64,000 nt of DNA from Phycisphaerae bacterium (GTDB lineage Bacteria > Planctomycetota > Phycisphaerae > UBA1845), in contig CAXXGO010000003.1 of the NCBI GenBank assembly GCA_963666835.2, positions 160,001-224,000 of the forward strand. Direction: 5' to 3'. Below the pieces are notes generated by a model. The model saw nothing but the letters and a program-made list of their open reading frames with translations, had not been told where the DNA came from and searched no databases. The first letter of the stretch is position 1. Each line of letters opens with the position of its first letter. This document shows, one piece after another, positions 17,870-47,820 of the stretch. Position numbers and translations under genes: made by a program.

Positions 17870-17967
17870 TCCAGCTCCTTCCTGGGTCGCGTGGACACAC
17901 TGTCACGACAAGGTGCCCGGCAACCCTGAGAAGCCTGTCGCCGGACCATCCTATTCACGTCCGGCGG

Positions 17968-18022: not shown

Positions 18023-18131
18023 CTTGGAGGTGGCATCGAAACCTGCGATGCGAAACCCCGTACGGTGATGCGGGTTTACCCGTAAGGACCGCGACTCAGT
18101 GACCCGGCAGACCTTGGGGCCTGCCGCGATT

Positions 18132-20756: not shown

Positions 20757-20963
20757 GCGCGGCAGGCTACCTTGGAGGCTTGAGTCCGGCAAGTGCAGGG
20801 GGCAGCATATCGGAACTTGGTTCGGCGGGAGGGCCAGAGAACTCGGCAACAGGGCGAAAACGAACTCGTTATCCGGCAGCGGGACTAACGTTTGCTCTGA
20901 CAACATGTCGAAGAAGCGGTGGGAAAGAGGCTTTCGAGTGACGTGTAATACGGAGATCAACCT

Positions 20964-25143: not shown

Positions 25144-25190
25144 GCGAACTGTCGAGCTGATACCGGTGTGCGGCAGTGCCGAGGGCCGGG

Positions 25191-25898
25191 TCAATGCTTG
25201 TTCCTGGGCGGCGGCCTGAGAGTGTACCCGACGCCGCGCACGGTCTGCACCAGGGCGGAGGCCTTACCGAGCTTCTTGCGCAAGGCGGCGACGTGGACGT
25301 CGATCGTTCGGTCGGTTACGACGACACTGGTTCCCAGCACGCCGTCGATCAACTGCTCTCTGCTCAGGACCCGTCCGCGCGCTGCCATCAACTCCCAGAG
25401 GATTCCGAATTCGGTCGATGTTAGTGACACGGCTTTGTCGTCCACTTTGAGTTCGCGGCGACTTCGGTCCAGACTGACGGATTCGGCGGTGAGCACGTCG
25501 CACCCGGCGGCGGACCCACCTACGCGGCGCATCAGAGCGCCGACCCGGGCGAGCAGCAGACTTGTGGAGAATGGTTTGCTGACGTAGTCGTCGGCGCCGA
25601 GGGCGAATCCAACCAGCTCATCAGCCTCCTCAGCTTTGGCCGTGAGCATAAGAACTCTAAGATCGGCCGTGTTCGGGTCGCGCCGGAGCTTCGCGAGAAT
25701 CTCGTCTCCCGCCATCCCCGGGAGCATTCGGTCCAGAATAAGCAGATCCGGCCGCGCGCGACGAACTTCGAGCAACCCGTTCGTTCCATCCGTGACACAT
25801 CGACAGGTGTACCCCTCGCGTTCCAGGTTGAAACGAACGACCTCGGCGAGGTCGGGCTCGTCCTCGACAATCAGAATGGTCCTGCTTGTGCTCATCAC
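25191..25898 (-). CDS. Orphan OmpR/PhoB-family response regulator (PhoB paralog 2)
   Basis: Intact receiver (VEDE, LDRMLP, MLTAK, SKPFS) and DRTIDVHVAALRKKL helix; very similar to 20055..20756. Confidence 0.9.
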   Translation of the reverse strand: MMSTSRTILIVEDEPDLAEVVRFNLEREGYTCRCVTDGTNGLLEVRRARPDLLILDRMLPGMAGDEILAKLRRDPNTADLRVLMLTAKAEEADELVGFALGADDYVSKPFSTSLLLARVGALMRRVGGSAAGCDVLTAESVSLDRSRRELKVDDKAVSLTSTEFGILWELMAARGRVLSREQLIDGVLGTSVVVTDRTIDVHVAALRKKLGKASALVQTVRGVGYTLRPPPRNKH

Positions 25899-25955
25899 TT
25901 CTCCGCATCCAACGCAAGCCGGCAGAGTGCAGACTCCTGCGCGGGAACCAGCCTG

Positions 25956-27329
25956 CTACTCAGCCAGACTCCTCACCGCCTTGTACTTCTCTCGGAATAC
26001 TCCGGCCCAGGTCCGAAGTAACTGCCGCGCCTCCCGGCCTCCGCCTTCCAGAGTCTTGGCAAGCATCAGGCTTTCGCTTTCAGTAAACGGTACTTTCTGC
26101 CATTCTTCGAGGGCCGCGGGCTTCATTCCGCCGTCGATGATAGCCTTCCAAGCGGCTTTGAGATCGCGATGTTGGTCGACCAACGCTGCTCCCATCAGCT
26201 CAGAGAGAACCAACAGGCGTGCTTTTTGCATTTCGGCGTCCAATTGGAAGAAGGCTCCCGACTCCGCCTGCTCATACGGACTCGTTCCGAGGATCTTGCT
26301 GGCGTGCGTAGTGTAAACGTCCGGACGGATCGGCAGGCGGTGCAGGGCATGCTCCCGCGGCCCGCCGATCTCTCCGGGCGGCAGTACCCAGAGAAGCTGT
26401 CCCTCCCGGCTCAGGACAAAGTTGATGAACTGCTCCGCCAAGCGTCGATGAGGCGGTTTTCGCAGCATCGATATGGGGTCCGGGGTAATCGCCGTGCCGC
26501 CGGTGGGGCATACGTACTGCAGGACGTCTTTGCCGGCCTGGGCAACGCGGGCAAACGCGTAGAAGTCTATGCACGGGCCGGCAAGGGCGTTGCCGGAAGC
26601 GATCTCGTTCGGTACGGCACTGCTACTGTCGGCGATTACTCGAGAGTTGGCGGCCAACTGCATGAGGATCGGCCAGCCCTTCTCCCATCCATGCTGCTGC
26701 AAGACGGCCTCGTAGCACACTTGGACGCTGGCGGACCTGCGTGGATCGGCGATAACCACCCAACTGAACATGCGTGGCTCCGCCAGATCCTCCCATGATT
26801 GGATTGACGGGAGTTTCTGGTTGTCGAGCCCGCGGCGGTTTGTTAGGATTCCGAAGGATGATATAGCGGCGCTGAACCAGAGCCGCCTTTCATCGTGGTT
26901 CGGCACGCCGGCTACTTGACCGGGGATCGCGGCGAGGAGCTCGCTTGATATCTCCGGAGATTGCAGGAATCCACGTCCGGCCGCCAGATCATGATCCGGC
27001 ACGCCACCGCCGAAGAACACGTCAATATCGAATGACTCCCCGGGAGTTGCCCGGTTCTTCGCCTCGAGAAGCTGAGCAAGTTGGCTCGTCCCCTGCTTGA
27101 TCCACCGAATCTTGACGGGACGCCCGACGTGATCGGCAAACCCCCATTCGAACTCCTGCTGAATGTGCATGTTATGCGGTGTTATAATTACCAGATCGTG
27201 ATCGTCCGCACGCGCTGGAAGGTGTATGATTGTCAGACAGGCCAGCAACACGGTCATGAGGGTCTTCGACGTCGACCACATCAGTTGTTCTCCCGGTATT
27301 CGTGTACGGTGCATATTCAAGTTACTCAT
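25956..27329 (-). CDS. ABC transporter substrate-binding protein, AfuA/FbpA-like
   Basis: Signal peptide (PARA|DD), DVFFGGG, SWEDLA, ADPRRSAS, ITPDPISML, FINFVLSREGQ. Confidence 0.85.
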   Translation of the reverse strand: MSNLNMHRTRIPGEQLMWSTSKTLMTVLLACLTIIHLPARADDHDLVIITPHNMHIQQEFEWGFADHVGRPVKIRWIKQGTSQLAQLLEAKNRATPGESFDIDVFFGGGVPDHDLAAGRGFLQSPEISSELLAAIPGQVAGVPNHDERRLWFSAAISSFGILTNRRGLDNQKLPSIQSWEDLAEPRMFSWVVIADPRRSASVQVCYEAVLQQHGWEKGWPILMQLAANSRVIADSSSAVPNEIASGNALAGPCIDFYAFARVAQAGKDVLQYVCPTGGTAITPDPISMLRKPPHRRLAEQFINFVLSREGQLLWVLPPGEIGGPREHALHRLPIRPDVYTTHASKILGTSPYEQAESGAFFQLDAEMQKARLLVLSELMGAALVDQHRDLKAAWKAIIDGGMKPAALEEWQKVPFTESESLMLAKTLEGGGREARQLLRTWAGVFREKYKAVRSLAE

Positions 27330-27441
27330 CTATAACGATGATATCCCGTGGGTTTATCCTGCATTCAACTACGCTTCCCGGATTCGGCACCCTGCTTCCC
27401 GCTCGTTCCAGGACTGCGCTCCTCAATGTGCCATTGTGAAT
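27322..27441 (-). pseudogene. Orphaned 3' end of the ABC ATPase gene, separated by IS1595
   Basis: Removing the IS and one TSD restores the frame: ...MQLILA+IHNGTLRSAVLERAGSRVPNPGSVVECRINPRDIIVIDE*. The stop overlaps the start region of the binding-protein gene (ATGAGTAA). Confidence 0.85.
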
Positions 27442-27448
27442 CGCGAGA

Positions 27449-28490
27449 CCTGATTCTCTACTTGACTCCGGCGGCTAAGTACGGTATTTGTTAGGGCTTA
27501 CGATTTCATGGTTCATGGAGGAGGTCGGCCATGTCTGACGAGATTCGCCCGAAGCATCCCGTGCCCAAGATCTTGGATGTAGCGTCGTTTATGCGTCGCT
27601 TCGGAGATGATGCGGCCTGTGCCGCGTATCTGCGAAAGGCTCGCTGGGGACCGAACCTGGAACGGTTCGTCTGCCCGGACTGTGGGCATAACCGCGGATG
27701 GTGGCTCCCGACCCGAGGGCTCGTCGAGTGCCGGGAGTGTCACCATCAGACCTCACCGACGGCCGGCACGGTGTTTCACGGTGCCCGCGTGCCGCTCTGG
27801 AAGTGGTTCTGGGCTATGTATCAAGAGGCTCACTCGAAGAAAGGCCTCGCGGCCACGGCGTTGGCCAAGCAGATCCAGGTCTGCTACCAGACTGCCTGGA
27901 TGATGCTGCAGAAGCTCCGCGAGGCCATGCGTCAACGATGCCAACGTTATGTCCTGCAGGGACTTGTGGAGGTCGACGAGACATACGTTGGCGGCCGGGA
28001 ACCGGGTCGGCCGGGGCGTGGAGTGGAGAAGAAGGTCCCAGTGGGAGTGGCCGTCGAGCTTGACGAGAACGACCGGCCTAAGCGAATCGCCATTCAGGGA
28101 CTGAAAAGCGTCGACGCTCGAAGCCTGAGGGGTTTCACGACGAGACACGTAGCGAAGGGCTCATGTCTCCGGACGGACGGATGGGGAAGTTACGTTTCAG
28201 TGGCCAAGGCCGGGTACGAGCACGAGGCAATCGTGACGGGCGGTGGGAAGAATGCGGTTCAAATTTTCCCCTGGGTTCACACCTTCATCGGCAACCTGAA
28301 GCGGATGATTGTGGGCACATATCACAGCGTTTCGCCCAAACACCTCGACCGTTACCTGGCCGCGTTCACCTATCGGGCCAACCGTCGCTGGATGGAAGCA
28401 AAACTCTTCGATCGCCTTGTTATCGCGGCCGTAGCTGCCAAACCACTGACATTAAAGGAGTTAACCACCGGAGCGAGGTAGAGAATCAGG
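27449..28490 (+). mobile_element. IS1595-family insertion sequence, 1042 bp
   Basis: Terminal inverted repeats CCTGATTCTCTAC(TTGA/CTCG)CTCCGG(C/T)GG(C/T)TAA; 8-bp target duplication TCGCGAGA at 27441-27448 and 28491-28498. Confidence 0.95.
27531..28481 (+). CDS. IS1595-family transposase
   Basis: Zn ribbon CPDC...CREC, TAGTVF, VEVDETYVGG, RTDGWGSY, GTYHSVSPKHLDRYL. Confidence 0.95.
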   Translation: MSDEIRPKHPVPKILDVASFMRRFGDDAACAAYLRKARWGPNLERFVCPDCGHNRGWWLPTRGLVECRECHHQTSPTAGTVFHGARVPLWKWFWAMYQEAHSKKGLAATALAKQIQVCYQTAWMMLQKLREAMRQRCQRYVLQGLVEVDETYVGGREPGRPGRGVEKKVPVGVAVELDENDRPKRIAIQGLKSVDARSLRGFTTRHVAKGSCLRTDGWGSYVSVAKAGYEHEAIVTGGGKNAVQIFPWVHTFIGNLKRMIVGTYHSVSPKHLDRYLAAFTYRANRRWMEAKLFDRLVIAAVAAKPLTLKELTTGAR

Positions 28491-29451
28491 TCGCGAGAAT
28501 GAGCTGCATGGTATCCCCCAAGTAGATTCGATCCCGCACGGTTGCTAACAGAAGGTTGTCGGTATCGCCATTGGATTCAGGGGTTGCAGATAGCAGGTCG
28601 ACGGTTTCCGGCCGAATCGACAGCAGGCACGGTCCTGATGTACGCCCGCCTTCCGGAGCCGAAGCGCAGAGTGTGCCCAGATCCGTATCCAAGATGCGAA
28701 GACCATTACGGGACGATCGGATAGTGGCCTTCAGGATGTTTGTCTCACCCAGAAAGTCGGCGACTTGGGCACTGCGCGGGCGTTGATACAATTCAGTTGG
28801 TGGACCCAATTGGGTAATGCGACCGGATTGCATTACCGCAATGCGATCGGCCATCGACAGGGCCTCCTTCTGGTCGTGCGTGACGTATACAGTGGTCAGC
28901 CCGAACTCCTTGCATAACGTACGAATCTCTGCGCGCATGTCCAAGCGAAGTTTGGCGTCCAGATTGCTCAACGGTTCGTCGAGCAGAAGGCAATGAGGGC
29001 GGATCACAAGGGCGCGAGCCAAGGCTACGCGCTGTTGCTGTCCACCGGACAACTGGTTGGGTTTCCGGCCCTCATAGCCGCCCATCTTCACCATCTCCAG
29101 GGCTTCGGTGACGCGCCGGGCGCGGAGCGCCCCGCGCACCTTGCGAACTGATAGACCGAACCCCACATTGTCCGCCACGGTGAGATGCGGCCAGAGGGCA
29201 TAGTTCTGAAAGACCATGCCCGTGTTTCGACGGCGTGGTGGCAGAAAGGTGACGTCATCTCCCCCGAAAAAGACCCGGCCGTAATCCGGAGAACAGAAGC
29301 CTGCGATAGTGCGCAGCAGGGTGGTCTTGCCGCAACCGGAGGGCCCGAGCAGGAAAAATAGCTCACCGGCGTCGATCGAGACACTTACGTCTTGCAGGGC
29401 GTGGGTATTCCCGAAACACTTGGTGACACTCTTGATGTCGATTGACCGCAC
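28486..29451 (-). pseudogene. ABC transporter ATPase (AfuC/FbpC/PotA-like), C-terminally truncated by IS1595
   Basis: [42 protein letters not shown]; the current stop lies inside the IS end. Confidence 0.88.
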
Positions 29452-29602
29452 GGGTTCCTCCTGTCAGGGTGCAAGAACGCAGGTTTCGTGGCTGCGTTGA
29501 GTAACAGGCGGGGAAGATCATCTGCCCAGCGGTCTCTTGCGAAAAAGCCGATTCCGCAGGGGGGTGCCAAGATGCCGTCCCCAGCTTCTTCCCCAGGATC
29601 CT

Positions 29603-31324
29603 CTACACTCTGAACAACGCTCCTAGTCGTTTTCCCAAGGCGAGCGACGCTATCACGATGGTAGTAATCAAGACGAGCATACCGATCACCCCGAGAGCCG
29701 ACGCGGTCTCCGTCCCGGATTCCGGAATATCCGCTAGAGACCAGATGGCTTTCGTCATTGGGTAGTACTCGCGGTCGAACGCTAGAATCAAACTGTCGGA
29801 TACTTCCAACATGGAACGGCTGAAAACCAGCAGGCCGCCGGCGATTAGATTCGGTGCCAACAGGGGGGCAGTAATCCGCCCAAGGGTCCGTATGGGGCCG
29901 GCACCTAGGTTCATCGCGGCTTCTTCCAACGCCACGGAAGTCTGCTCCAAGCCGGCCGCGCAGGCTCTTACGACAAAAGGAATCCGGCGCACGCAATAAG
30001 CGATGACCAACAGCGGCATCGGGCTCCGGGTGAGCGGGTTAAGGAACCCGACCGGGGAGTCGCCTTGGGTTAGCGCGAAGTAACCAAAGGCCATGACTAA
30101 ACCGGGAACCGCCAAGGGCAGCATGGCCAAGCCATCCAGAATGGCAGTGAGAGGCGTACGTCGTCGGACGGCCAGGTATGCAATGGCGAATCCGAAGAAC
30201 ATGGCCCCGACCGTTGCGATGATCGAGTAGGTGACGCTGTTGACTATGCTCCGGGCGGCTACCCCCTTGCTGGGGTCGCCGAAACTCAGAATGTCGCTGA
30301 TTATGCCGACGTAGTGGCGCGAAGTCAGGTGTCCGGGAGCGAGTTCGAGCATACCGGTGGAAGTTATGCTACCCAGGATAACGCCCAGGTGCGGGACTAC
30401 GGCCGCGAGGAAGACGACACCGAAGGGCGCGGCCAACAGAAGGCTGCCTGCTGACCCCAAGCGCCGGAGCGGCGTGGATACGGTCGCTTTGGGGGCCATC
30501 GCCCCGGAAGGGCGTCCCAGGACCCACTTGCCCAGCGCGAAAATCAATACGCTTATCGTGAGCAGCACGACTACCAGAGCATACGCATCGCCCTGTGGGT
30601 TGGTTGTCTGAAGCTGGTCGAAGACCTGAACTGCGGTCACCGCGCGAAACCCTACGATCAAAGGTGTGCCCAGCTCGGTGAATGCCCAGATAAACACTAT
30701 TGTGGATCCGGCAAACACACCCGGCCGAGCCAGCGGAAGCGTCACCCGCCAAAGACGCCGGAAGAAACCGGCACCGAGGTTCTGAGCGGCTTCTTCCAGC
30801 GATGGATCGAGATTGGCGAGGGTCGCTTGGATGTTGAGGAATGTAATCGGGTAGAGATACAGCGTTTCCAGCACAATGCACGAAATGAAGGGCGAAGCCA
30901 GCCAGTCGATGGGATTCGCAGGGTCGATGAGGCCCAACGCCGCCAGCAGGCTGTTGAGGCCGCCGTTACGCGAGAGCATCCCCTTCAAACCCAACGCCCC
31001 GACAAACGGCGGCAGAATCAGCGGCACCTGAATGAGGGCCAGCCACCAGCGCTTTCCGGCGAAATCGAAATTCTCCGAAATCAACGCCAGCGGAAACGAG
31101 ATCAGTAGACACAAGATCGTAGTGCAAGACGCCAGGACCACGGAGTTGACCAGCCCCTCGCGGTAGAGCGGGTCCTCGAAGACCATCGAAAGCCAGAACA
31201 TGCTGAAACGGCCGTCTTCGTCGAAGCCGGCGCGTACGACTGCGAATATCGGAGCTAGCAGGACCAGACCCAAGGCAAGAATGAGGAGAAGAGTCAGCAG
31301 GGAACTCAGTTGCCACCGCTGCAT
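29603..31324 (-). CDS. ABC transporter double-domain permease (AfuB/FbpB-like)
   Basis: Two EAA loops (LEEAAQNLGA, LEEAAMNLGA) and multiple TM segments. Confidence 0.9.
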   Translation of the reverse strand: MQRWQLSSLLTLLLILALGLVLLAPIFAVVRAGFDEDGRFSMFWLSMVFEDPLYREGLVNSVVLASCTTILCLLISFPLALISENFDFAGKRWWLALIQVPLILPPFVGALGLKGMLSRNGGLNSLLAALGLIDPANPIDWLASPFISCIVLETLYLYPITFLNIQATLANLDPSLEEAAQNLGAGFFRRLWRVTLPLARPGVFAGSTIVFIWAFTELGTPLIVGFRAVTAVQVFDQLQTTNPQGDAYALVVVLLTISVLIFALGKWVLGRPSGAMAPKATVSTPLRRLGSAGSLLLAAPFGVVFLAAVVPHLGVILGSITSTGMLELAPGHLTSRHYVGIISDILSFGDPSKGVAARSIVNSVTYSIIATVGAMFFGFAIAYLAVRRRTPLTAILDGLAMLPLAVPGLVMAFGYFALTQGDSPVGFLNPLTRSPMPLLVIAYCVRRIPFVVRACAAGLEQTSVALEEAAMNLGAGPIRTLGRITAPLLAPNLIAGGLLVFSRSMLEVSDSLILAFDREYYPMTKAIWSLADIPESGTETASALGVIGMLVLITTIVIASLALGKRLGALFRV

Positions 31325-31383
31325 ACTTTTCTACCTTGCAGTGCCGCGAATCGCGCAACGACGCCTATGGTGAGCCCGGCGAA

Positions 31384-34300
31384 TCACGGTTGAAGTCTCA
31401 GGCGGAATCGCGCCGCGACCGGGTTGTGATCCGATCCCAGGCTGTCGACGCTTCCGGTGCGGATGGCGTACGACCCGGGAACGTACTGCTTAGCCAGGGC
31501 GGGCGAAGATAGAATGAAGTCGATCATAGATCGATACGGCTCGCGATTGTAGGTGATACGATCTGCCTTCGGTATCTCCTCGGCAAAGCACCGAAGCGCG
31601 CGCGGACCGTTTCCCACGAGGGTCTGCAAAGTGTTACTATCCCAGGTGTCGTTGAAGTCGCCACAGAGCGCAATAGCGGCGTCCGGATCCCGCTGCAGGC
31701 GGTCATCAAGAATCTCGCGGATCTTCTTCGCCTCTGCTACGCGGATGGGCTCGGCGTACGCGCGGCCGTCATAGTTGCTCTTCAGGTGTACCACCCAGAC
31801 CTCGAACGGAGCTGCTCTCTCCGGCTCCAGGCGAACACCCAGCAGATCCCGGCCGAAGCGGCGCAGTGATCCGCTCGCATCCGGAAACTCCAGGTGCCGG
31901 TACGACGTTACCGGCCCGACGGGCACGCGCGATACAAGAGCCGCGTCGATTCCTCGGGCGTCGTTGCTCTCGAAGTGGACGACATGACTGTAACCCATAT
32001 CCGACAGGAAGACCTCCAGGAAACGTTCCAGGTACCCCCGGCTTTCCACTTCCTGGAGAGCCAGTACGTCGGCGTTAATGTCCCGGATCGCCTGGGCGAC
32101 TCGCTCGAGCTCACGGCGCGGTTTGGTCGGAGTGGAGTCGTCGTTGCGGTACGGATCATCGACGTCATCGAAGAGATTCAGGATGTTGAAGGTCGCCACC
32201 GTGATGGTATCGCCCAACTGGACCTCGTGATCCGCAAGCGGAGGCACCGACGGCAAATCCTGGAGAAACTCGATCTGGTCGGGCGTCGTCACGTAAATTT
32301 GCGGCCGGCCCCCGTAGGTGCTAACCCCGCCGCGAACGCGGACCAACTTGCCCTGGTACATCTCGCGAAGCGGCATTGGGAAATTGGCTGCGAACTGTTG
32401 GAAGACCACCACGGAGAACCCTTCGGGCCCTGAGCTGGGGCCGAAGTTCAGCAAGGTCACGCGCCCTTTGGTCAGAACCTCGCGGATCTGGCCATGTACG
32501 AAGGCCGTACGCCCGATGATTTTGCCGGCGTCCTGCCAGCTTACGTGCGGTCGTCCCTCGTCCGGACCGATCGCGGGCTGGTCCGCGAAGGCCCCGGCCG
32601 TAAGGAGGGTCCAGGCCAGGAACGTCCCCGTAAGGACCCGAACGCTTTGCGTCCTCTGTCCTGCCTTTGGGCGAACGAACGCATGCGACCGGCCGTTACG
32701 AATAATAATCACGGTGCACGTCGCGACCATACCCAGAAGCATGACGACAAGGCCCCATGTGGAGACCGTGGGCACGGTGGGGGCGCACTCGTCGGGAATC
32801 CCGTCTCCATTGGTATCCAACGACGTTCCGGATTCGATATCGCACTCGTCGGGGATCCCGTTAGTGTTGCAGTCTTCGCTTGTTGAGGCGTCCAGGTCGC
32901 AGAGATCCTCAATACCGTTACCGTTGCAGTCGTCAGTCAAAACCTGCGTGCAAGTACCCTCGGGGGTGCAGTACGGGCTGCCATTGCACCAGTCGCCGTC
33001 TTCGCAGTGGCTGTTCTGCAGGCAATCCACGCATCGATCGTCGCTCTCTCGGCAGTAGGGTGTCAGGCACGGCGATTCTCCGGCTTGGCAATCCAACTCC
33101 GGGTCGCACGTCTCCAATCCGTCGCAGAACAACCCATTATCGCAAAGATCATCATCCGGAGTATTCTCGCAAACGGGTGCTACGCAGGTGTCTACGGTGC
33201 AGGCGACGAAGTCATCGCAGTCTTCGTCGTTTTCGCATCCGGCAGTACTGAGAATGAAATCGGCGATGACGGGACGATGATCGGAGGCCATCTGGCTTGC
33301 CCCGCTGGGCCAGAAGTACCCGTCGAGTTCGGACGGGAGCGAATCGGCGGGGGTGCTGCCGCCGGTGTAGAAAACGAAGGCTTGCCGCAGGACAGCGATA
33401 CTGTCCTGCCAAGCGATGTAATCCAGTTTGTTGGTGCTTCCGCTACCGGAGCCCTGGGTACGGCGATAACCGTTGAAGTAGTCTACTGCCGTGTCATAGG
33501 TCATGTCCGAGCGGTCGCGATCGGTCCCGTCGGGAGCCCCGGTGATCTCCGCCATGGTCAACCAATCGGCCGGCCCTTTTCGTCCGTTAGTCTGCTCATC
33601 CTCGTTCCAATCACCGCCGATGATCACGGCTGTCTCGGCTCCTAGAATCTGTTGGGCCGCGGGACTGTCCCAGATCTTGCCGTGCGGGTCCGGGATTCCC
33701 TCACCTGCCCCGTTGTACCAGTAGTCAATCACGTATGCGACTCGCTGAGCAGCTTCCAGACGCTGGGCCAAGTCGTCGGACGATCCCCCGGACTTAAGAT
33801 GAGCGTTGCCGACCACGACATCGCCGACATAGGTTTCATCCGGAAGGTCGATCTCGGCGAACTGGAATCCCCGGATACCGCCGTCACCAGGCTCGGTCAC
33901 ATACTCATCAGCAAAAACGGTAGGGATGTCGGCAAGAGTGTCTTTCGTATCCCCGTTCAGGTCGGCAAAGGGATACCGGCTGAGGATTGCATTGCGGTTG
34001 TATCCGTCCGATTCGCTGGGCACGAAGATATATGGTAAATCGTAATCCGGCGCGAATAACTGTACCCACGATTCCACAGTTGGATTGCCCGTTATGAACG
34101 GGTCCTCCCCGCCGTAGAGGAACAGCTCCAGCACCGTGGTAAGCTCCGCAACGGAGTCAAGGCAGCCGCTGCAGTCGTTGTCCCCCGCCTCCTGAATGAT
34201 GAGCACATCCGGACGCATTCCCGCCACGATCCGGACCAGAGCATCCCAGGTAGAATTCGCGGTCTTGCTGATCTCGGTGCGAATGTCGTCCTCTACGTTC

Positions 34301-34428
34301 CAGGTCATTACCCGCAAGTCAGTAGTCTCGGACTTCGACCAGTCCCCGTTGGGTGGGTCCCAGGCGTTTACGTCAAGTGCGATAGTGCCGAACGCGATAA
34401 GCGCGACAACCGTTATGACCTTGTTCAT
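31384..34428 (-). CDS. Secreted protein with two endonuclease/exonuclease/phosphatase (EEP) domains, an internal IPTL-CTERM-like segment, a second signal peptide and an OB-fold-like domain
   Basis: EEP1: MTWNV, IQE, HLKS, GDWN, LDY, SDHRPV. Then Cys/Asp-rich repeats and VPTVSTWG+TM+R. EEP2: TFNILN, LQEVE, HLKS, GDFND, IDF, SDHNPV. Confidence 0.85.
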
Positions 34429-34653
34429 GGCCGTTGATTCCTCAATTGCGCTTGATCCGCAGCTTGCGGTGGCTTATTCGCCCGACACGATCGGACTTTA
34501 GGCTCGAAACCAGCGAGGTCCCTGACGGCCCCGACGGCCTGACAAGACGTTCCGGGGTGGAGCAAGCATGTGCGGCAGATTCTACTCACACAAGGCTCCA
34601 TCCCGGTACTCGTCTCGACAGACCGCGGGGTCCAAATCCGTCCTCCGAAGTAC

Positions 34654-36741
34654 CTAGATCAACTGCCGTTTGCGGCCACGCATGACCACTGTTCCAACCG
34701 CCATCACGAGGAGAGTCATGACGATCATTCCCCACTCGGATACGGCGGGCACGTTGCCCGATCCGCCCGGAGCTACGGACCCGATATACAACAGCACGTT
34801 GTAGTCTTGGTCCTGTTCGCCCGTTGCTCCGGTGCAAGGCTGCTCGAAGTCACCGTCCTGGTCCGCGTCATAGACGATCTCTGCGGCCAACACGATTCCA
34901 CCAAGGGTGCGCGGATCCGCCGGTTCGATAGTCGCCGGATCAAGGCCCAGGTGGGCGCTCTCGCTGATATTCTGTGACCACATCGTTTCGGACGCGACCG
35001 AGTTGGAGTCCGCGATACCCACGAACGTCACCATGTAGTCGCGGTCGGAGTTCTGTCCATGGAAGACATCGCCGAGTTTGAAGACCAGTTCCAGCTCGTA
35101 CCCGAAGGTAGCAGGATCATAGACGGCTCGTAACAGGCCGGTGGTTAAGTCGCTGGGGTCACCGAAGAGCTCGATGGCCGAGAAGAACCAGACATTGCCG
35201 GCTGAGTCGATCATGGGCGCCGAAACGCTCGGGCCGAACGGCGTGCTCTCCGTAGTCACCTTATCCAGGCCGACCATCCGCCCGATTATGCTTCCGCCCG
35301 GACCGTCCAAGATTGGCTTGCCGCCTCCCGACGTTCCCTCGGTGCCATCGGAGTAGCCGGCCATAGTCCAAGACTGCGTTCCGGTAGTGCAATCCACCCG
35401 AGCTACCGCGATGTAGTTAACCGGCCAGTCAGTCCCACCGTCCGCGGGGTGGTCGACTTGGGCGGCTGCGAGCAGGTTTCCAGCCGGATCGACCCCGAGA
35501 GCAATCTGACCGTTACCACCCCGGTAAGCCACCTGGCTATGGTAGTGATCAAACTCGTTTGTCCCGGCGATGTTGGTTGCCCCGGTGGTCGGGTCGGTGA
35601 TTACTGCTGGAAGCCGCAGCGCGAGTGTTCCAGTGACGTTCCCAGACGCCCCCAGACCCCAGAGGTTCATGAAGATACCCAAGGCGCTGGGATCATCAGT
35701 CGCGGCGTCGCGCCCAATAATCGCGGCGATGCCGTGCGTACTGCTCAGTTGGCTGCAATTGGCGCTTGTGTAGCTGATATTGCCGCGGGTCGAAAGCACG
35801 CCTGTGCCCCAGTGAGTCTGATCGCAGGTAACCGCACCGAAGTCGGTTCCCCGGCAGTACTGTCCATCGAAGTTGACGCCGATGTAGAGCGGAGCGCCAC
35901 CGACGATCGGACCGGGGATCATTCCGGGGGTGCTGTGCACCGTGGCGGAGTTTCGGACGACCCAGTCGGTCACCGCCGAGTCGAACTGGCCACCGGGATA
36001 GTCGTTGCTGATGACATTCAACGATGTCGTATTGCGGTTCGCGGCATCGACCCGGAACACGTTATCAGCGGTTAGGGCGGTCAGCCCACAACCGGCGGAA
36101 GTGCCGTACGCGTCGGCGCGAAGGTGGAGTACTCCCGCAGGATCGATTGACCCGGTTCCGAACCCGGACAGGTTTGATGTGTTATCGCACGAGTTCGTCG
36201 CGGCAACGATTCGTGATACGTACAACCGCGTCGGCGCCGAAGGTTCATACTGCACCAATCCGGCGATCGTGCCGTTGTAGTTGGCCTCATTATCCGTGGT
36301 GGAGTACTCGGCGAAATCCACCGCGAACTTGTTCCCGAGACGCCCGGTCAGATCGATCTGCGTAGTGGGGGCGTCGTTCTGGACGGTATTGACCCCGTAG
36401 CCCGGGGCGTTCCAATAGTCAAACGACCCATCGAGAGTCTGTCCGAACAGTTGAACTCGACTTATAGCTTGAGCACTCATCAAGCTGCCGAAGTAATCGG
36501 AGCTGGTCTTGCTGGACTTGACCAGCGGGGCGATTCCAAACGCGGTACCCCACGACGTATTGAAAGCCGTCAGATCCACGACATAGTCATTCCGCTGTTC
36601 CGTGGTGTCCCAGGGATCTAATGCATCGCCCGGCAGGCAGGCGGTGTTCGAAACACTGTCCGTGGCGAACGCCGGGGATGCCAGAATCAGAATCAGTGCT
36701 AACCCTCTCAAACGACTGCCCATGTCTCCGTACCCAATCAT
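34654..36741 (-). CDS. Secreted IPTL-CTERM surface protein of unknown function
   Basis: AAAGGAG RBS, signal peptide (SPAFA|T), C-terminus VPAVSEWGMIVMTLLVMAVGTVVMRGRKR. Confidence 0.85.
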   Translation of the reverse strand: MIGYGDMGSRLRGLALILILASPAFATDSVSNTACLPGDALDPWDTTEQRNDYVVDLTAFNTSWGTAFGIAPLVKSSKTSSDYFGSLMSAQAISRVQLFGQTLDGSFDYWNAPGYGVNTVQNDAPTTQIDLTGRLGNKFAVDFAEYSTTDNEANYNGTIAGLVQYEPSAPTRLYVSRIVAATNSCDNTSNLSGFGTGSIDPAGVLHLRADAYGTSAGCGLTALTADNVFRVDAANRNTTSLNVISNDYPGGQFDSAVTDWVVRNSATVHSTPGMIPGPIVGGAPLYIGVNFDGQYCRGTDFGAVTCDQTHWGTGVLSTRGNISYTSANCSQLSSTHGIAAIIGRDAATDDPSALGIFMNLWGLGASGNVTGTLALRLPAVITDPTTGATNIAGTNEFDHYHSQVAYRGGNGQIALGVDPAGNLLAAAQVDHPADGGTDWPVNYIAVARVDCTTGTQSWTMAGYSDGTEGTSGGGKPILDGPGGSIIGRMVGLDKVTTESTPFGPSVSAPMIDSAGNVWFFSAIELFGDPSDLTTGLLRAVYDPATFGYELELVFKLGDVFHGQNSDRDYMVTFVGIADSNSVASETMWSQNISESAHLGLDPATIEPADPRTLGGIVLAAEIVYDADQDGDFEQPCTGATGEQDQDYNVLLYIGSVAPGGSGNVPAVSEWGMIVMTLLVMAVGTVVMRGRKRQLI

Positions 36742-36898
36742 GCCTGATGCTCCTTTCCGTTGTCCATGGTTTTGTTCAAAGACGGCCGGCCTCTCGAATC
36801 GAGAAGTCCGCCGCCAGACCCGTTCGATAAACTCCATACCCGTTAGGCGTCTATGCTCTGCGTCACCGGGCTGTATACCTGCCTCGCTCGCCCGCGGC

Positions 36899-37984
36899 CT
36901 ACGGTATTTCCCACTCCTGCTCAACTGCGGTCATGCCTTCGAGCGCGTTCTCGACCACCGCGCCCCGCGGATACCAATACTCGATCTTCCGCGAATCGCG
37001 ATCGTTCAGCAGCTCGACGTGGCCGTCGAAAAACAAGATGTTCATCAAGCCGGCGTTGTCTTTGGCGTGTCCAGTACCACTACTGTGAACACTATGCCGG
37101 TACGACAGTGCCAGATTCTTGCCGTTACTGGGGGAACCACCCGCACCTGAGCCGGCCCCGTCCCAATTCAACGAGTCCTTGTGTACGCCGTAAGCAGTGG
37201 ATCCTCGCCACCACGCTCCGGATGACGTAAACGACCCGAAGTAGTTCGGGAACGGGCTAACGTCATGATCCAGTAAGAGGTTGTCCGGGAGATAGCGGGT
37301 CCCGTCAGCCAGAAAGACCTTCCTTCCCGGAGTCCCGATGCGATTGAGGCGAGAGACATAGTCGGTAACGCGGACATTATCCCAATCATCCGGTGCCGCC
37401 TTGGCGACGACCTTCATTTGCGGAAAGAACTCCAAGGGGCTGAGCTCTCTGCCCGCCTGGCGCTCGCCCCAATACTGAAAATAGGCGGGCATGAGGTAAC
37501 TGACGGCCGCCCACGAGCCGACCTTCTCGAACTCGGATTTCTCGGATCCGCTGCCGTTGTAATAGGCGGCCGAGTTATACGTCTTTGCGCAGGGGCAGGC
37601 ATAGTAGTTCATCAAGTGGGCGAACCGGTCTGCGCGCCTGACCGGGAGGTTCGGCTCATCCAGAATCGGCGACAGCCAATCGAAGGACTGCACCGGTAGG
37701 AAAGACTCCTGCAAGGCCTCCCCGTCCATTCCCTTACGCGCCCGCAGCGCTACTCCCGACGTATTCAAACCGGGCAGCCAGTCGTTATTGACGTAGGTAT
37801 AGTCCGCAAGACCCGTCGCGAAGCCGTGAAGATGGGCTCCGCACACCACTTCCTTGGCGTGGTCCCGGGCCTTTCGCAGGCTAGGCAGCAGGATCGCCAT
37901 CAGGGCAGCGATGATCGCAATGACGACCAGTAATTCGATAATTGTGAACGCGCTCGAGACGTTTCTTGATCGGCGCGCAAACAA
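36899..37984 (-). CDS. Prepilin-type N-terminal cleavage/methylation protein with H-X9-DG-type C-terminus
   Basis: AFTIIELLVVIAIIAALMAILLPSLRKAR..AK...C; C-terminal YRH...NILFFDGHV. Start uncertain (TTG at 37984; the ORF track extends to 38101). Confidence 0.88.
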   Translation of the reverse strand: MFARRSRNVSSAFTIIELLVVIAIIAALMAILLPSLRKARDHAKEVVCGAHLHGFATGLADYTYVNNDWLPGLNTSGVALRARKGMDGEALQESFLPVQSFDWLSPILDEPNLPVRRADRFAHLMNYYACPCAKTYNSAAYYNGSGSEKSEFEKVGSWAAVSYLMPAYFQYWGERQAGRELSPLEFFPQMKVVAKAAPDDWDNVRVTDYVSRLNRIGTPGRKVFLADGTRYLPDNLLLDHDVSPFPNYFGSFTSSGAWWRGSTAYGVHKDSLNWDGAGSGAGGSPSNGKNLALSYRHSVHSSGTGHAKDNAGLMNILFFDGHVELLNDRDSRKIEYWYPRGAVVENALEGMTAVEQEWEIP

Positions 37985-37991
37985 CTGGATG

Positions 37992-38342
37992 CTAACGGCT
38001 GTTTCTGATCGCGAGGGTCCCGAGGTCAACATACTGGTTCTTATCCTTGAGATCTTGGACGGTAGTACGATAGCGATCCGGAACGTACCGAGCGCCATCA
38101 CGGGTTTCGAAGGGGATCAACGTGCGTTCGCCCGTTTCGGGGTTCTCCATTGGGAGCATGTTCACGCGTTCACGCGGGATGTTAAAAGTCTCCCCGGTAG
38201 CAGCGCAGACTAATGGCATCCTGTTGGGTAGCTCGAGCGGCGACGAATGAACGAAGGACCAACCGATCACCACGGCAATACCGACTACCGCGATCGCCAG
38301 CAGCAGGTTACGTTGAGTTTGGATGAAGTCGAACAATAACAA
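37992..38342 (-). CDS. Small single-TM hypothetical protein
   Basis: AAAGGA RBS, N-terminal hydrophobic helix, motifs LVCAATGETF and ENPETGERTL. Confidence 0.65.
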   Translation of the reverse strand: MLLFDFIQTQRNLLLAIAVVGIAVVIGWSFVHSSPLELPNRMPLVCAATGETFNIPRERVNMLPMENPETGERTLIPFETRDGARYVPDRYRTTVQDLKDKNQYVDLGTLAIRNSR

Positions 38343-38363
38343 CGCCAGGGTCCTTTCTTTGTT

Positions 38364-39907
38364 GCCTCCTCAGCAGAATTTGTGGTGGATTTTCGGTTCG
38401 GGTAGTTTGCCAAGTGCGTGATATAGGGCGACTTCCGCGGCCTTTAGCTCTCGAAAGCCGTAGGCTCTTCTGATGGTCAGTTTGACCTTGTTGTTGAGTC
38501 CCTCCACGATCCCGGACGAATACTGCTTTCTCGCCGCAAACCAATTCAAGATCAGGTTCTCATGAGCACGCAGACTGCGCGCGACTTTCTTAATCGGTTC
38601 AAGCCGGCTGCGCATGGCCCGTTGAATCCACCCCTTCAGAAATCGTCCTGCCCAGTGGTATGACTCGTAATCCCAGAGCGCCTGGAAGCTGTCCTTGAGC
38701 AGGTAGGCCCGGATGCTCTTGAGGTTGTATCGCATCAGTTCGCTGAGCTTGGCTCCCTGTTTGTTCGTCAGGTTCGCGGGACGCTTCAGCAGGCACCACC
38801 GGCTGTGCTTCAGCACCGGGTCGAAACCTTCGCGTGCCAGTTCCTTCGCCTCGGCCGCCCGGACCTCGTCAACCGCCTTGTTCAGCCTGGCCACGATGTG
38901 GAACCGATCCAGAATGTGAATCGCGTCGGGGATCTTCTTCCGGATCACGCGCAGGTAGGGCTGCCACATATCGCTGCAGACGTAACGGATTCCGGCTGAT
39001 CGCGGCTTGCCCATCATGCGAAAGAAACGCAGGAAGCTCTTGGCGGTGCGATCCTGCCCGATCCACAGCAGACGCCGGCACGAGTTCTCAATCTGGTAGA
39101 CCAACGTCAGATACCGATGTCCTTTTTGGAACTGAATCTCATCGACGCCGATGGCGGCGACGTTGTCCAAATCCCGGTGTTTCAGGCCGTATTCGACGAC
39201 CCAGGCAACCGAGCGGTAGACCGTGTCCCAGCTGGTCTTGAACACCGTGGCCACCTCTTTCCAACTCAGGCGGCGCGCCCACCGAGCGAGGAACAGCGCG
39301 TGAGCGTTGGTGATTCGCTTCTTACCGTCCGCCCAAGGCAACAGTTCGACCTTCACGCCGCAATCCTCGCACTTGACGCGGCGGGGTGCGTAGAGCATCA
39401 CAACCGGCAAGGCCCACAGCGGAATGAACGAGAACGATCGTCTCGGCATTCGGTCGTAGGCCTTGCCTCGGCGGCCGCAACCCGAGCAGAACGGACGGCT
39501 GCCGCGTCGCGGCCGGATTTCGACTTCCAGCGTCATGGGATCCGAATCACGGAATCGAACGTCTCCGTAGACGAAGCCCTTGACTTTGTGGACGCGATTG
39601 AGGATGGTCTTCACTTGCATCGTTCGTTTTCTCCGGGTTGATGTCTTCGCAAACACCAATTTACCGGATTCTCGAACGATGCACTTCTTTTGTCCCGGAC
39701 ACAAGCCGGCCTCTGCCCGTTCCGTCACGTAAACCAAACGCTGCCTCCAGGCCCCTGTAGCTCCGTCACCCTCGGCGTCGGTCTCACCCGACTAGGGCCG
39801 ACGCCGAGGGGGACGGTGCGGAAGGGGCCGCCCCGGACAGCTCCCGAGCCGGAGGCCGAGGATCACCTCAACCTATGAAATCCTTCCACAGATTCGGCGG
39901 AAGAACC
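38364..39907 (-). mobile_element. ISL3-family insertion sequence, 1544 bp
   Basis: Imperfect terminal IRs (GCCTCCTCAGCAGAATTTGTGG versus the reverse complement of CCACAGATTCGGCGGAAGAACC); 8-bp target duplication TCTTTGTT at 38356-38363 and 39908-39915. Confidence 0.92.
38370..39620 (-). CDS. ISL3-family transposase
   Basis: Zn finger CSGC...CEDC, IGVDE, VCSDMWQPY, LDRFHI, VEGLNNKVK...RRAYGFR. Confidence 0.95.
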   Translation of the reverse strand: MQVKTILNRVHKVKGFVYGDVRFRDSDPMTLEVEIRPRRGSRPFCSGCGRRGKAYDRMPRRSFSFIPLWALPVVMLYAPRRVKCEDCGVKVELLPWADGKKRITNAHALFLARWARRLSWKEVATVFKTSWDTVYRSVAWVVEYGLKHRDLDNVAAIGVDEIQFQKGHRYLTLVYQIENSCRRLLWIGQDRTAKSFLRFFRMMGKPRSAGIRYVCSDMWQPYLRVIRKKIPDAIHILDRFHIVARLNKAVDEVRAAEAKELAREGFDPVLKHSRWCLLKRPANLTNKQGAKLSELMRYNLKSIRAYLLKDSFQALWDYESYHWAGRFLKGWIQRAMRSRLEPIKKVARSLRAHENLILNWFAARKQYSSGIVEGLNNKVKLTIRRAYGFRELKAAEVALYHALGKLPEPKIHHKFC

Positions 39908-39913
39908 TCTTTG

Positions 39914-41035
39914 TTAGACGGCGGCGCGGGCAGCGCCGTCCTTTGCCTGCCGCGCGTCGTCAAGAAACGCCAGCACTTGAGTGGTCGTGCGGAATAGTCT
40001 GGAGGCCGTCTCCGTGATAAACGGACTGGGAGGGCGTTCGGGCTTCCACACCACATACACCTGACGGCCGTGCTCGTACGCGTGGTGCAGTTCCCGCTCC
40101 ACTCCGCTCGATATCGCCGGGGTGCCGTCGGGAAGCTCAGGAACCAAGCTGATGATCATGTCCGACTGGTCGATCAACTGAAAATCACGCGCGTAGATCT
40201 GCCCGTCAATGTCGCCGGCAAGCTCGAGTAGTTGCTTGGCGGACACTTGATAATTCTGGGTTGCCCCGTCCGGCCCGGACATTTGGCTTTCAACGAAGTC
40301 GCGGCCCTCCTTGGTAGCGGCGATCGCAGCGTCCACCAGGTGCTTCTCATCAACGTCCACCGGATCGAACACAATAAGCCGGTCAGCTAGTTCAAGCCGA
40401 AACGCATCGATTTCCGCGATGACCTCGGGCATCCCGACCACGTGGGTCATGGGGTACGAAACATAAGCCTTGGGGAGGTGCGGTTGAGTAATGAGGCGAA
40501 AGCACGTTCGCATGGTTCCGCCGGTTTTCCCGCGAGGCAGAACATAGCAGGAATTGGCACAACCCAGAGCCAAGGCCAGCAGCTCTGTCGCGAGTATCTC
40601 CTCCTCCCGCCAGACCAAAGTGTCCTTGAGCGTGGCGTCCACCTTGTGTTTGCACATCAGCCGGTGGTGTACCGCATCAACCGAGTCCACCAGACAGATG
40701 AACATGTCAGGGCGGAGTCGCTCAATCTGGTCGAAGTCAAAGGCGCGAAAGAGGCTGTGACGCCACCGGAATGTGGCATGCGTATTGACGATGATGTTAG
40801 GACGCCCCTCTGCCTCCCTGAGAATATCCTTGAATACGGAACGGCGAAGGGTGTGCAAACGACTCAACGGTAAATCGAGGATTCGGCCCGGCGGTACGTC
40901 CGGAGCATCCGCATACATGCGATCGCCGACGTGAAAAGCAGCTAATCCGCTCCGAGAATCCCGGGTGATGCGCTCGACGCCACGCAGATACTCCTGCTTG
41001 TCGAGTCCTACCTGGCCGGTCAAAACTGCTCGCAT
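39914..41035 (-). CDS. Fusion of an archaeal-type adenylate-kinase-like P-loop domain and a nucleoside 2-deoxyribosyltransferase-like domain
   Basis: N-terminal VLTGQVGLDK, VGDRM, IIVNTH, LRPDMFICLVD; C-terminal YVSYPMT, ARDFQLIDQSD, SSGVERELHHAYEHGRQVYVV. Confidence 0.65.
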   Translation of the reverse strand: MRAVLTGQVGLDKQEYLRGVERITRDSRSGLAAFHVGDRMYADAPDVPPGRILDLPLSRLHTLRRSVFKDILREAEGRPNIIVNTHATFRWRHSLFRAFDFDQIERLRPDMFICLVDSVDAVHHRLMCKHKVDATLKDTLVWREEEILATELLALALGCANSCYVLPRGKTGGTMRTCFRLITQPHLPKAYVSYPMTHVVGMPEVIAEIDAFRLELADRLIVFDPVDVDEKHLVDAAIAATKEGRDFVESQMSGPDGATQNYQVSAKQLLELAGDIDGQIYARDFQLIDQSDMIISLVPELPDGTPAISSGVERELHHAYEHGRQVYVVWKPERPPSPFITETASRLFRTTTQVLAFLDDARQAKDGAARAAV

Positions 41036-41128
41036 TGGGTTGAAGCCTTCTTTTTATTCGAGCGCCAACGCTGCGGCCCGGGGGTGGACGCTCATCAACG
41101 TCCGAGTCAGCCGCAGCAAACGCCCGAG

Positions 41129-41194
41129 AGTATAACGATCGCGATTACCGGCATGATGAAGTCCGCATGAATCTACTATGAAGATTCCGTAAAG
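41129..41194 (-). promoter_or_regulatory. Pho-box-like array and -10 element upstream of the kinase-NDT gene
   Basis: Minus strand reads CTTTAC-N5-CTTCAT-N5-ATTCAT-N5-CTTCAT (11-bp period, 41156-41194); TATACT at 41129-41134. Confidence 0.65.
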
Positions 41195-41211
41195 GTCGGG
41201 GCGTGGCGCAT

Positions 41212-41251
41212 CTTAACGAGAAGTTAACATTGCTCTTATCTGATCCTCACA
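41212..41251 (+). promoter_or_regulatory. Pho-box-like array upstream of the pseudo-receiver regulator
   Basis: CTTAAC (41212), GTTAAC (41223), CTTATC (41235), CTCACA (41246); spacing 11, 12, 11. Confidence 0.6.
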
Positions 41252-41261
41252 ATTCTGTGTT

Positions 41262-42038: not shown

Positions 42039-42141
42039 ATGGTCTTTCATTAGTCCCCGGTATCGGGCCGTGCAGGCCCGTTGTCACCAACGATTCAGGA
42101 AACGGCGGTTTTGCCTGCGAACGAGTTCTGGTTTGCGCATT

Positions 42142-42180
42142 CTTAATCCGGTTTTAACTGCGCCTTAGTTGTATCTTTAC
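42142..42180 (+). promoter_or_regulatory. Pho-box-like array upstream of the lamin-tail protein
   Basis: CTTAAT-N5-TTTAAC-N5-CTTAGT-N5-CTTTAC, exact 11-bp period. Confidence 0.7.
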
Positions 42181-42300
42181 GGCCCGCGATCGAAGATCTT
42201 GCGCGTTGCGAAAAAAGCGGCCTGGTGGCGGCTTGAGCGTAGTATCCAGGAGCGGAGCGGACAAATGGCTGAAGAACAGAGGAAAGGAGCACGGGGAATC

Positions 42301-47814: not shown

Positions 47815-47820
47815 CGCAAC

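Follow-up and report, generated by a model that had tools for sequence, protein, structure and literature searches.

What do nine genes on one strand, starting 4.2 kb from the phoBR-porin-pstSCAB-phoU locus of a Phycisphaerae bacterium, accomplish together, and would phosphate starvation govern them? The genes occupy positions 25191-41035, minus strand, of the 64,000-nucleotide (nt) stretch of contig CAXXGO010000003.1 (positions 160,001 to 224,000) analysed herein, hereafter the window. An initial annotation, drawn from the letters of the window, had proposed that they form an undescribed phosphate-starvation system for scavenging extracellular nucleic acid or organophosphate. Our open reading frame (ORF) listing and family scans recovered all nine ORFs at the places given there, separated by gaps of 19 to 225 nt, a wider range than the "short gaps" first described. 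Comparison with related genomes reveals a conserved surface module carrying two EEP-domain proteins, often adjoined by genes of an ABC importer from an organophosphate-binding branch, to which a two-domain kinase-nucleoside 2-deoxyribosyltransferase (NDT) protein is facultatively linked. With moderate confidence, we favour a phosphate (Pho)-linked locus for nucleic-acid degradation and organophosphate import. The initial annotation thus stands as an observation, with four corrections, and in part as an interpretation.

Surface module and companion genes in relatives

Homologs of the module genes were sought in 60 relatives (designated by G numbers) of the same order as the window genome, G000, and loci around them were fetched. 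The surface module, comprising genes for a small transmembrane (TM) protein, a pilin-like protein, an IPTL-CTERM protein, EEP1 and OB-EEP2, is syntenic in 10 of the 60. Homologs of the IPTL protein occur in 10 relatives, all from the family of the window genome, while OB-EEP2 homologs occur in 29. The complete order small TM-pilin-IPTL-EEP1-OB-EEP2 is kept in G004, G017, G024 and G035; it is kept without a small-TM match in G016 and G031, and as far as EEP1 in G011. Relatives preserve the 116-residue TM gene at its place before the pilin-like gene. ABC genes adjoin the surface module in six of the ten, among them G009, G024, G029, G031 and G035.

These arrangements vary in their details. The permease, ATPase, binding-protein, kinase-NDT and lamin-tail domain (LTD)-like genes of G024 share one strand, with small TM, pilin, IPTL, EEP1 and OB-EEP2 on the other; G029 carries permease, ATPase, binding protein, kinase-NDT, pilin and IPTL up to the contig end. 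The order is permease, small TM, pilin, IPTL, EEP1 and OB-EEP2 in G035; pilin, IPTL, EEP1 and OB-EEP2 in G016; and small TM, pilin, IPTL and EEP1-LTD in G011. The binding-protein gene of G031 is divergent from ATPase, pilin, IPTL, EEP1, LTD-like and OB-EEP2 genes, and in G017 and G004 it is the kinase-NDT gene that is divergent from small TM, pilin, IPTL(-LTD-like), EEP1-LTD and OB-EEP2. G009 encodes IPTL, pilin, permease, kinase-NDT and binding protein, followed by a DHH/DHHA1 (NrnA-like) gene (L022:9142-10224), and a 564-residue Endonuclease I protein abuts the cluster EEP genes in G004 (L021:11435-13129). In G024 and G029, the gene after the one for the binding protein is kinase-NDT, which in G037, a genome of a different family, lies directly ahead of OB-EEP2. 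Because the fetched loci show such kept arrangements, the surface module and importer are not scattered in relatives; conservation of the neighbourhood holds to this extent, whereas relatives keep neither the PhoB paralogs nor the position next to pst.

In the window genome, EEP1 and OB-EEP2 are fused in a single ORF, laid out as a signal peptide, EEP1, a Cys-rich region and an IPTL-like TM sorting signal (about residues 556-590; a hydrophobic segment, then basic residues), and thereafter a second half with a signal-like hydrophobic stretch ending in AFA, an OB-like region and EEP2. This fusion is unique to the window genome (1 of 31 matches; open frame of 1029 residues vs 281-508 in the other 30), and the two are separate genes in all relatives examined. 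It is not an assembly slip, since the frame has identical length in a second strain. Judging from the translation, two TM segments between two exported domains would be topologically possible. The ORF belongs to the EEP superfamily, with PF03372 matching at 88.7 bits (cut-off 24.5) over two stretches, and QE, GDxN and SDH(R/N)P motifs, which we take to be catalytic, are readable in both halves. By profile, the nearest solved relatives of the EEP proteins are other EEP proteins, RNA deadenylases and TDP2. A sequence search of the whole 1014-residue ORF against solved structures gave zero matches at E 0.01 or better, the ExeM/NucH model NF033681 scored 46.5 bits, below its cut-off of 300, and family scans gave no LTD match in the ORF. 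LTD is fused behind EEP1 in G004, G011 and G017, with LTD-like sequence adjoining EEP1 in G031, and the G017 ortholog yields an OB-fold match.

The IPTL protein scores 20.8 bits with TIGR04174 (cut-off 20.5) and 19.5 with PF18203 (cut-off 20.8); an atlas search returned DUF7453/PEP-CTERM clusters at a top score of 0.87, which serves as a lead only. The pilin-like protein bears the N-terminal methylation motif (PF07963, 23.0 bits; cut-off 21.2), and the DUF1559 (PF07596) cut-off is reached solely by its G009 ortholog (24.5 vs 23.3). The lamin-tail protein, encoded on the plus strand and probably starting at ATG 42301, contains one Pfam LTD and two LTD-like repeats with Cys-rich linkers between them, and scores 20.8 bits with PF18203 (cut-off 20.8) and 20.3 with TIGR04174 (cut-off 20.5). 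It had been described as lying divergently behind the same motif as the nine genes; the RR2 gene sits between the shared intergenic region and the lamin-tail gene, which has an array of its own (Table 1). The lamin-tail gene is adjoined at 45512-49332 by a PAD_porph (agmatine/peptidyl-arginine deiminase-like) gene and an OmpR-type regulator with a histidine kinase. A 601-residue protein at 50433-52238 displays Cys-rich Dicty_CTDC-like repeats in the style of the Cys-rich linkers of EEP1 and the lamin-tail protein.

Table 1. Positions of the features discussed, counted from the first letter of the window
Feature	Position	Strand	Remarks
Core Pho locus	11065-20960	-	Pfam
phoU	11065-11832	-	
pstS	15238-16122	-	then pstC, pstA, pstB
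OprB-type porin	16511-17869	-	
pst-promoter array	17984-18021	-	TTAGC/TTAAC/TGAAT/TTAAT, 11-bp period, 10 nt upstream of -10-like GAGAAT
phoR	18132-20054	-	
phoB	20055-20960	-	
RR1	25191-25898	-	PhoB-like regulator; ORF and family scans
Solute-binding protein	25956-27329	-	periplasmic, AfuA/P5PA/PhnS branch, extra C-terminal helical extension
Displaced 3' remainder of ATPase gene	27322-27447	-	rest of TOBE domain
IS1595-family element	about 27448-28491	+	transposase 27531-28481
ABC ATPase	28486-29451	-	PhnT2/PotA/UgpC type, 321 residues after truncation by the element
Fused double ABC permease	29603-31324	-	two domains, 573 residues
Double-EEP ORF	31384-34428	-	1014 residues
IPTL-CTERM surface protein	34654-36924	-	outside known families; signal peptide near codon 62 (34654-36741)
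Prepilin-type N-methylation protein	36899-38101	-	feature 36899-38032; DUF1559-like planctomycete pseudopilin
Small TM protein	37992-38342	-	116 residues, single N-terminal TM helix
ISL3-family element	38364-39907	-	8-bp target duplications at 38356-38363 and 39908-39915
Kinase-NDT protein	39914-41035	-	373 residues, weak AAA_17 match
TATACT	41131-41136	-	-10-like hexamer ahead of minus-strand genes
Array a	41157-41194	+	TGAAG/TGAAT/TGAAG/TAAAG, 11-bp period
Array b	41213-41228	+	TTAAC N6 TTAAC
RR2	41262-42038	+	PhoB-family regulator with pseudo-receiver
Array c	42143-42169	+	TTAAT/TTAAC/TTAGT, 11-bp period, upstream of lamin-tail gene
Lamin-tail protein	42301-45285	+	secreted, IPTL-CTERM

The importer and the kinase-NDT protein

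The binding protein matches PF13343 (SBP_bac_6) at 61.2 bits (cut-off 24.6). Searched as a single sequence, it found P5PA and AfuA at E of about 1e-9 and the ferric binder HitA at 1e-3. A profile built from 40 homologs matched P5PA (ligand pyridoxal phosphate; E 2.3e-25), AfuA (sugar phosphates; 9.2e-25), VcA0625 (glucose 6-phosphate; 2e-22) and HitA (ferric iron; 1.6e-9), i.e., the protein falls within the AfuA/P5PA/PhnS branch of SBP_bac_6, closer to organophosphate binders than to ferric ones. With an AlphaFold (AF2) model (predicted local distance difference test [pLDDT] score of 92.8), the top eight Foldseek matches were five AfuA chains (bound to glucose 6-phosphate or fructose 6-phosphate, or apo), VcA0625, P5PA and Salmonella STM0429; the last carries no ligand label, making this a group of organophosphate binders or their homologues. 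Profile and fold support the AfuABC-type affiliation proposed at the outset. As in the AfuABC, VcA0625 and P5PA systems, the binding protein has for partners a fused permease and an ATPase of TOBE type; unlike theirs, it carries about 120 residues of additional helical extension, and its identity to them is only 17-21%. The best models for the ATPase and permease are of 2-aminoethylphosphonate, polyamine and molybdate types, all below cut-off, and the PhnS2/T2/U2 models TIGR03261, TIGR03265 and TIGR03262 gave 51.4, 361.9 and 135.5 bits against cut-offs of 392.75, 457.7 and 593.25, respectively. From sequence and model, our best guess is that the imported ligand would be an organophosphate.

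Alternatively, the ABC system could be an ordinary ferric-iron importer merely beside a surface-protein operon, as suggested by the automatic name of its homologs ("ABC-type Fe3+ transport system substrate-binding protein") and by ferric binders that score just slightly lower by fold (E about 1e-16). We consider this very improbable given that (i) ferric binders trail P5PA and AfuA by some 15 orders of magnitude in the profile search, (ii) the conserved DPRKSxS motif of the binding protein aligns with the DP(Q/R)SSGT motif of organophosphate binders, and (iii) six relatives have the ABC genes linked to the EEP module. We think that the "Fe3+ transport" naming is misleading.

The kinase-NDT protein had been described as a fusion, and alignment of its model with solved structures corroborates both folds. 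An AF2 model from 54 sequences (mean pLDDT 95.7) was aligned to 48,161 solved chains (VIA): residues 1-185 adopt an archaeal-type adenylate-kinase fold (6ln3; Z 21.5, root-mean-square deviation [rmsd] 2.2, 183 residues) and residues 185-363 the NDT fold (7o62; Z 15.6, rmsd 2.2, 130 residues), with lower matches to MilB (Z 11.6) and Rcl (Z 11.3) of the NDT superfamily. By sequence profile, archaeal adenylate kinases are matched at E 5.6e-16, and NDT (E 0.04) and CMP N-glycosidase (E 0.045) weakly; the Pfam NDT model gave no match in the family scan. Glu315 and Gly311 do not vary across the 54 sequences and Ser309 hardly does; together they make up an SxGxxxE motif at which, we assume, the catalytic Glu of the NDT family sits, its first-position Ser presumably marking members that bind a 5'-phosphate. 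Glu315 would thus be the nucleophile, and Ser309 would make the protein one of the 5'-phosphate binders. Fold and conserved Glu together place the C-terminal domain in the NDT superfamily, alongside hydrolases such as DNPH1/Rcl, MilB and CMP N-glycosidase; unlike these and the archaeal adenylate kinases, however, the window protein fuses both domains, with a P-loop consensus of GQSGxxK (GQxGxxK) rather than GxxGxGK, the last Gly not being conserved.

This protein is by no means confined to the cluster. At E 0.001 or better, an exhaustive homologue search returned 864 representative clusters, mostly of the same two-domain length; the gene is present in 54 of 61 genomes, and G000 itself holds a second copy in an unrelated context. 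Any part of the cluster is found in just 10 of 80 Phycisphaerae kinase-NDT loci with 10-kb flanks (permease in 5, the pilin/IPTL/EEP module in 4, the binding protein in 2 and the ATPase in 1). Across the same 80 loci, no other family recurs beside the gene in more than 6, and those that do are housekeeping genes. The kinase-NDT gene is therefore a widespread stand-alone gene whose link to the cluster is real but facultative: scattering in relatives, named at the outset as a refuting outcome, is half borne out for it. Large DUF3352-type proteins are encoded in the window at 5306-8888 and 59224-61155, and again near the G031 kinase-NDT gene (L019:13548-17202).

On another view, the EEPs would act on organophosphates other than nucleic acids, for instance inositol or sugar phosphates, the head groups of phospholipids, or polymers resembling teichoic acid, served by a sugar-phosphate or phosphonate importer, with the kinase-NDT gene an unrelated neighbour. 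The EEP superfamily is functionally broad, taking in lipid and inositol phosphatases as well, and the structural and profile matches of EEP1 are weak; the nearest solved binding proteins take glucose 6-phosphate, fructose 6-phosphate and pyridoxal phosphate; a 2-aminoethylphosphonate NCBIfam type, though below cut-off, ranks best for the binding protein and among the two best for the permease; and the kinase-NDT gene usually stands alone. We nonetheless find this improbable. Nucleic acids are indicated by the OB-fold match, by the LTD domains and by the genes for Endonuclease I and DHH/DHHA1 next to the cluster in G004 and G009, respectively; the PDB entries matched by profile are phosphodiesterases acting on nucleic acids rather than sphingomyelinases or inositol phosphatases; and the kinase-NDT gene has re-associated with the cluster in several different arrangements.

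Possible phosphate control

Is the favoured reading, of nucleic-acid degradation coupled to organophosphate import, rightly tied to phosphate? The sole PstS match of the genome, both of its PhoU-domain matches (in one gene) and its best PhoB-model match all fall in the neighbouring Pho locus. The four-unit array ahead of porin-pstSCAB-phoU, co-directional with the pst genes, is a candidate for the organism's Pho box. Behind this array, between phoR and pstS, lies the OprB-family porin, which is probably a phosphate-starvation porin.

Related repeats recur at the cluster. Read on the minus strand, array a is CTTCA/ATTCA/CTTCA and overlaps the -35 position of the TATACT promoter, while ahead of RR2 the last unit of array b forms the -35 element of a sigma-70-like site, its TTAACA and CACAAT being 18 nt apart. 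The pattern TTCAT, three times at 11-bp spacing, has a single site in the 6.0-Mb genome, at the cluster. When the unit is relaxed to T[TG]A[AG][CTG], the genome contains five period-11 triple arrays. The window accounts for four, of which two overlap each other at the pst promoter and two belong to the cluster. The remaining one (C1:1847931; TTAGC/TTAAC/TTAAT) is close to the pst array in sequence and lies upstream of a prepilin-type paralog (332 residues), followed by a secreted protein of 758 residues whose N-terminus is LTD-like and whose C-terminus is dockerin-like (C1:1847931-1851400). That N-terminus can be matched to the LTD-like region opening the lamin-tail protein (pair E 5e-5); between the 758-residue and IPTL proteins, no relation was detectable. 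This gene pair may be a second member of the cluster's regulon. As a genome-wide Pho-box probe, the strict pattern TTAA[CT]-N6-TTAA[CT] was rejected, six of its eight sites lying outside the window beside phosphate-unrelated neighbours (dnaA region, transposase, PAS proteins). Terminator- and promoter-like consensus sites within 24800-42300 are no more frequent than in shuffles.

Among relatives, a triple array precedes pstS in G016, and double repeats occur in 10 of 18 regions upstream of cluster or pst/phoB genes (14 matches in 12.3 kb), compared to 1 of 46 control non-coding stretches from the same loci (2 matches in 12.0 kb of similar G+C), though the relatives are kin and not independent. 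As in a standard PhoB/PhoR regulon, OmpR-family regulators are here accompanied by 11-bp direct repeats at or abutting -35 and by a pstSCAB-phoU target; unlike it, the unit is TTA(A/G)C/TGAAT, and there are two extra paralogs, one without the phospho-acceptor. We take the window repeat unit to be nearer the cyanobacterial CTTAACCT unit than the CTGTCAT unit of E. coli.

These two paralogs, RR1 and RR2, flank the cluster, and no kinase gene adjoins either. RR1 is 58% identical to the PhoB encoded at 20055, with its acidic pocket, acceptor Asp, Thr and Lys intact. In an alignment of six regulators, the RR2 receiver has Asn in place of the acceptor Asp and has lost the conserved Thr and Lys; RR2 is thus not phosphorylatable in the usual way. 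All three scored below the TIGR02154 equivalog cut-off of 296.2 bits (RR1, 226; RR2, 137; the phoR-adjacent PhoB, 247.9). PhoB, RR1 and RR2 share the recognition helix TDRxIDVHxAxLRKKL, from which the regulator at 47065 differs. Going by its sequence, RR2 is probably a phosphorylation-independent regulator of, or competitor at, Pho-box-like sites.

The explanation that we favour is that of a two-module locus that would feed on extracellular nucleic acid and, in the window genome, be tied to the phosphate-starvation regulon. The putative steps, in order, are that (i) module A (the small TM, prepilin-type, IPTL-CTERM, EEP1, OB-EEP2 and lamin-tail proteins) would be exported to the cell surface, where (ii) the two EEP phosphodiesterases, held by IPTL-type C-terminal signals, would cut DNA or RNA; (iii) module B (permease, ATPase and AfuA/P5PA-like binding protein) would import a phosphorylated product; and (iv) the linked adenylate-kinase/NDT enzyme would act on cytoplasmic nucleoside monophosphates, by N-glycosidic cleavage and/or phosphorylation. 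PhoB-type proteins on the 11-bp-period repeats would govern the plus-strand genes at a minimum, and probably the entire locus, the nine minus-strand genes presumably being co-transcribed. In favour of the Pho link, no UshA-type 5'-nucleotidase domain, PhoX or PhoD was found in G000, a genome that is 92% complete.

Beyond the fold proximity of ferric binders, the weak EEP1 matches, the breadth of the EEP superfamily and the mostly solitary kinase-NDT gene, several observations weigh against this explanation. Genome-wide, relaxed triples show no excess at period 11 (5 sites) over periods 13 and 14 (4 and 5), and the repeat pattern was partly shaped on sites later counted. The cluster arrays are co-directional with the plus-strand RR2 and LTD genes and not with the nine-gene row; a Pho-box-like array and TATACT do both lie ahead of the nine genes, as first annotated, but the array points along the plus-strand genes. 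Convincing arrays are lacking from the cluster upstream regions of three relatives (none in G024 and G016; one weak opposite-strand match in G029). The relatives' clusters hold no regulator gene, and pst lies on other contigs in G004, G016, G024 and G031, such that the regulatory wiring is lineage-specific. Lastly, one PhoA-type phosphatase gene is present elsewhere in the genome, and the ATPase is truncated in the window strain.

The arrangement in relatives, the orientation of the arrays and the three relatives without a convincing array would also suit the main rival, namely nucleic-acid foraging or surface-matrix remodelling for carbon, nitrogen or biofilm purposes, free of phosphate control, in which the Pho neighbours and paralogs are local accidents. 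ExeM and Xds act in biofilm turnover too, according to PMC6085458. We deem this rival unlikely, as the repeats are common to pst promoters in several genomes, the two paralogs flanking the cluster have the PhoB recognition helix, and the importer comes from an organophosphate branch.

A bolder, joint form of the phosphate-linked explanation would have nucleic-acid phosphorus gained without a periplasmic 5'-nucleotidase. Herein, the ABC system would import nucleoside monophosphates or very short oligonucleotides freed by the surface EEPs; the kinase-NDT enzyme would phosphorylate these for salvage or split them into base and (deoxy)ribose 5-phosphate; and the non-phosphorylatable RR2 would be a dedicated switch on the Pho-box-like repeats. 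This proposal is a long shot; if true, it would constitute a nucleotide-import route in a free-living bacterium.

Insertion history and place among known systems

The nine-gene row is presently interrupted twice. The insertion sequence (IS) IS1595 has 8 further genomic places (two being halves of one interrupted copy), and ISL3 has 3 further full copies and one 129-bp fragment, all at 98-100% identity; the 8-bp duplication flanking ISL3 is TCTTTGTT. Logan contigs from four sequencing runs were compared with window positions 25100-45000. In two runs from another study, contigs of a near-identical strain (one of 35 kb) cross both sites without either element, the skipped stretches measuring exactly 1050 bp (27441-28490) and 1552 bp (38356-39907) and each junction being ambiguous over 8 bp. 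These IS-free contigs show zero other indels relative to the window and a handful of substitutions, from which it follows that both insertions are recent and strain-specific. With ISL3 removed, the kinase-NDT stop lies 19 nt from the small-TM start, the exact bridging thereby confirming the spacing that had been deduced for the state before insertion. IS1595 lies inside the ATPase gene and is not intergenic, cutting off the last ~39 codons and leaving TOBE profile positions 1-36 of 76; without the element, the ORF would run to 359-360 residues, ending at 27322 and overlapping the binding-protein start. The importer may thus be impaired in the IS-bearing strain, and the IS-free sister strain and the IS-disrupted strain make a natural comparison pair.

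The underlying idea is an established one, as nuclease loci beside pst and PhoB-controlled secreted nucleases have already been described elsewhere. According to PMC6085458, ExeM of Shewanella oneidensis is built from LTD, EEP and an OB-like stretch, with GlyGly-CTERM as its C-terminal anchor. The window locus shares with ExeM, Xds and NucH a signal peptide, lamin-tail domain, OB-like nucleic-acid-binding stretch, EEP and C-terminal TM sorting signal; it differs in spreading these modules over EEP1, OB-EEP2 and LTD proteins, in using IPTL-CTERM in place of the GlyGly-CTERM of ExeM, and in adding a pilin-like protein, a ~700-residue surface protein and an ABC importer. In Vibrio cholerae, per PMC4714964, xds transcription is PhoB-dependent at low phosphate, and growth on DNA as a phosphate source proceeds via Xds and Dns, together with periplasmic UshA, CpdB and PhoX; its authors point out that a nucleotide transporter had yet to be identified. 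The "DNA-degradation loci" of Candidatus Izemoplasmatales, as set out in PMC8289736, bring together nucleases, an LTD-bearing nuclease, transporters and phosphate ABC transporter/pst genes. Those loci belong to a different phylum and cell envelope, and in that account carry 5'-nucleotidases and putative nucleoside/nucleobase transporters, whereas the window locus has an organophosphate-type binding protein, has pilin-like and IPTL proteins, and is without a nucleotidase.

Within the literature on IPTL-CTERM, on Phycisphaerae and extracellular DNA, and on kinase-NDT fusions, we found no description of the locus. "Undescribed" is thus apt for its composition and lineage, but not for its strategy, which PMC8289736 and PMC4714964 already present. 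What is new is the combination of a pseudopilin, IPTL proteins, split EEP modules, an organophosphate-type importer replacing nucleotidases, a linked kinase-NDT enzyme and PhoB paralogs.

Ultimately, extracellular DNA is a large phosphorus pool in the sediments and waters where Phycisphaerae are common. Should the phosphate-linked explanation be true, these bacteria would gain a defined and testable DNA-scavenging apparatus, with parts that have had no assigned function, namely the DUF1559-type pseudopilins, the IPTL-CTERM proteins and the widespread kinase-NDT enzyme. It would also raise a sharper question, that of the direct import of phosphorylated nucleotides by an AfuA-like ABC system.

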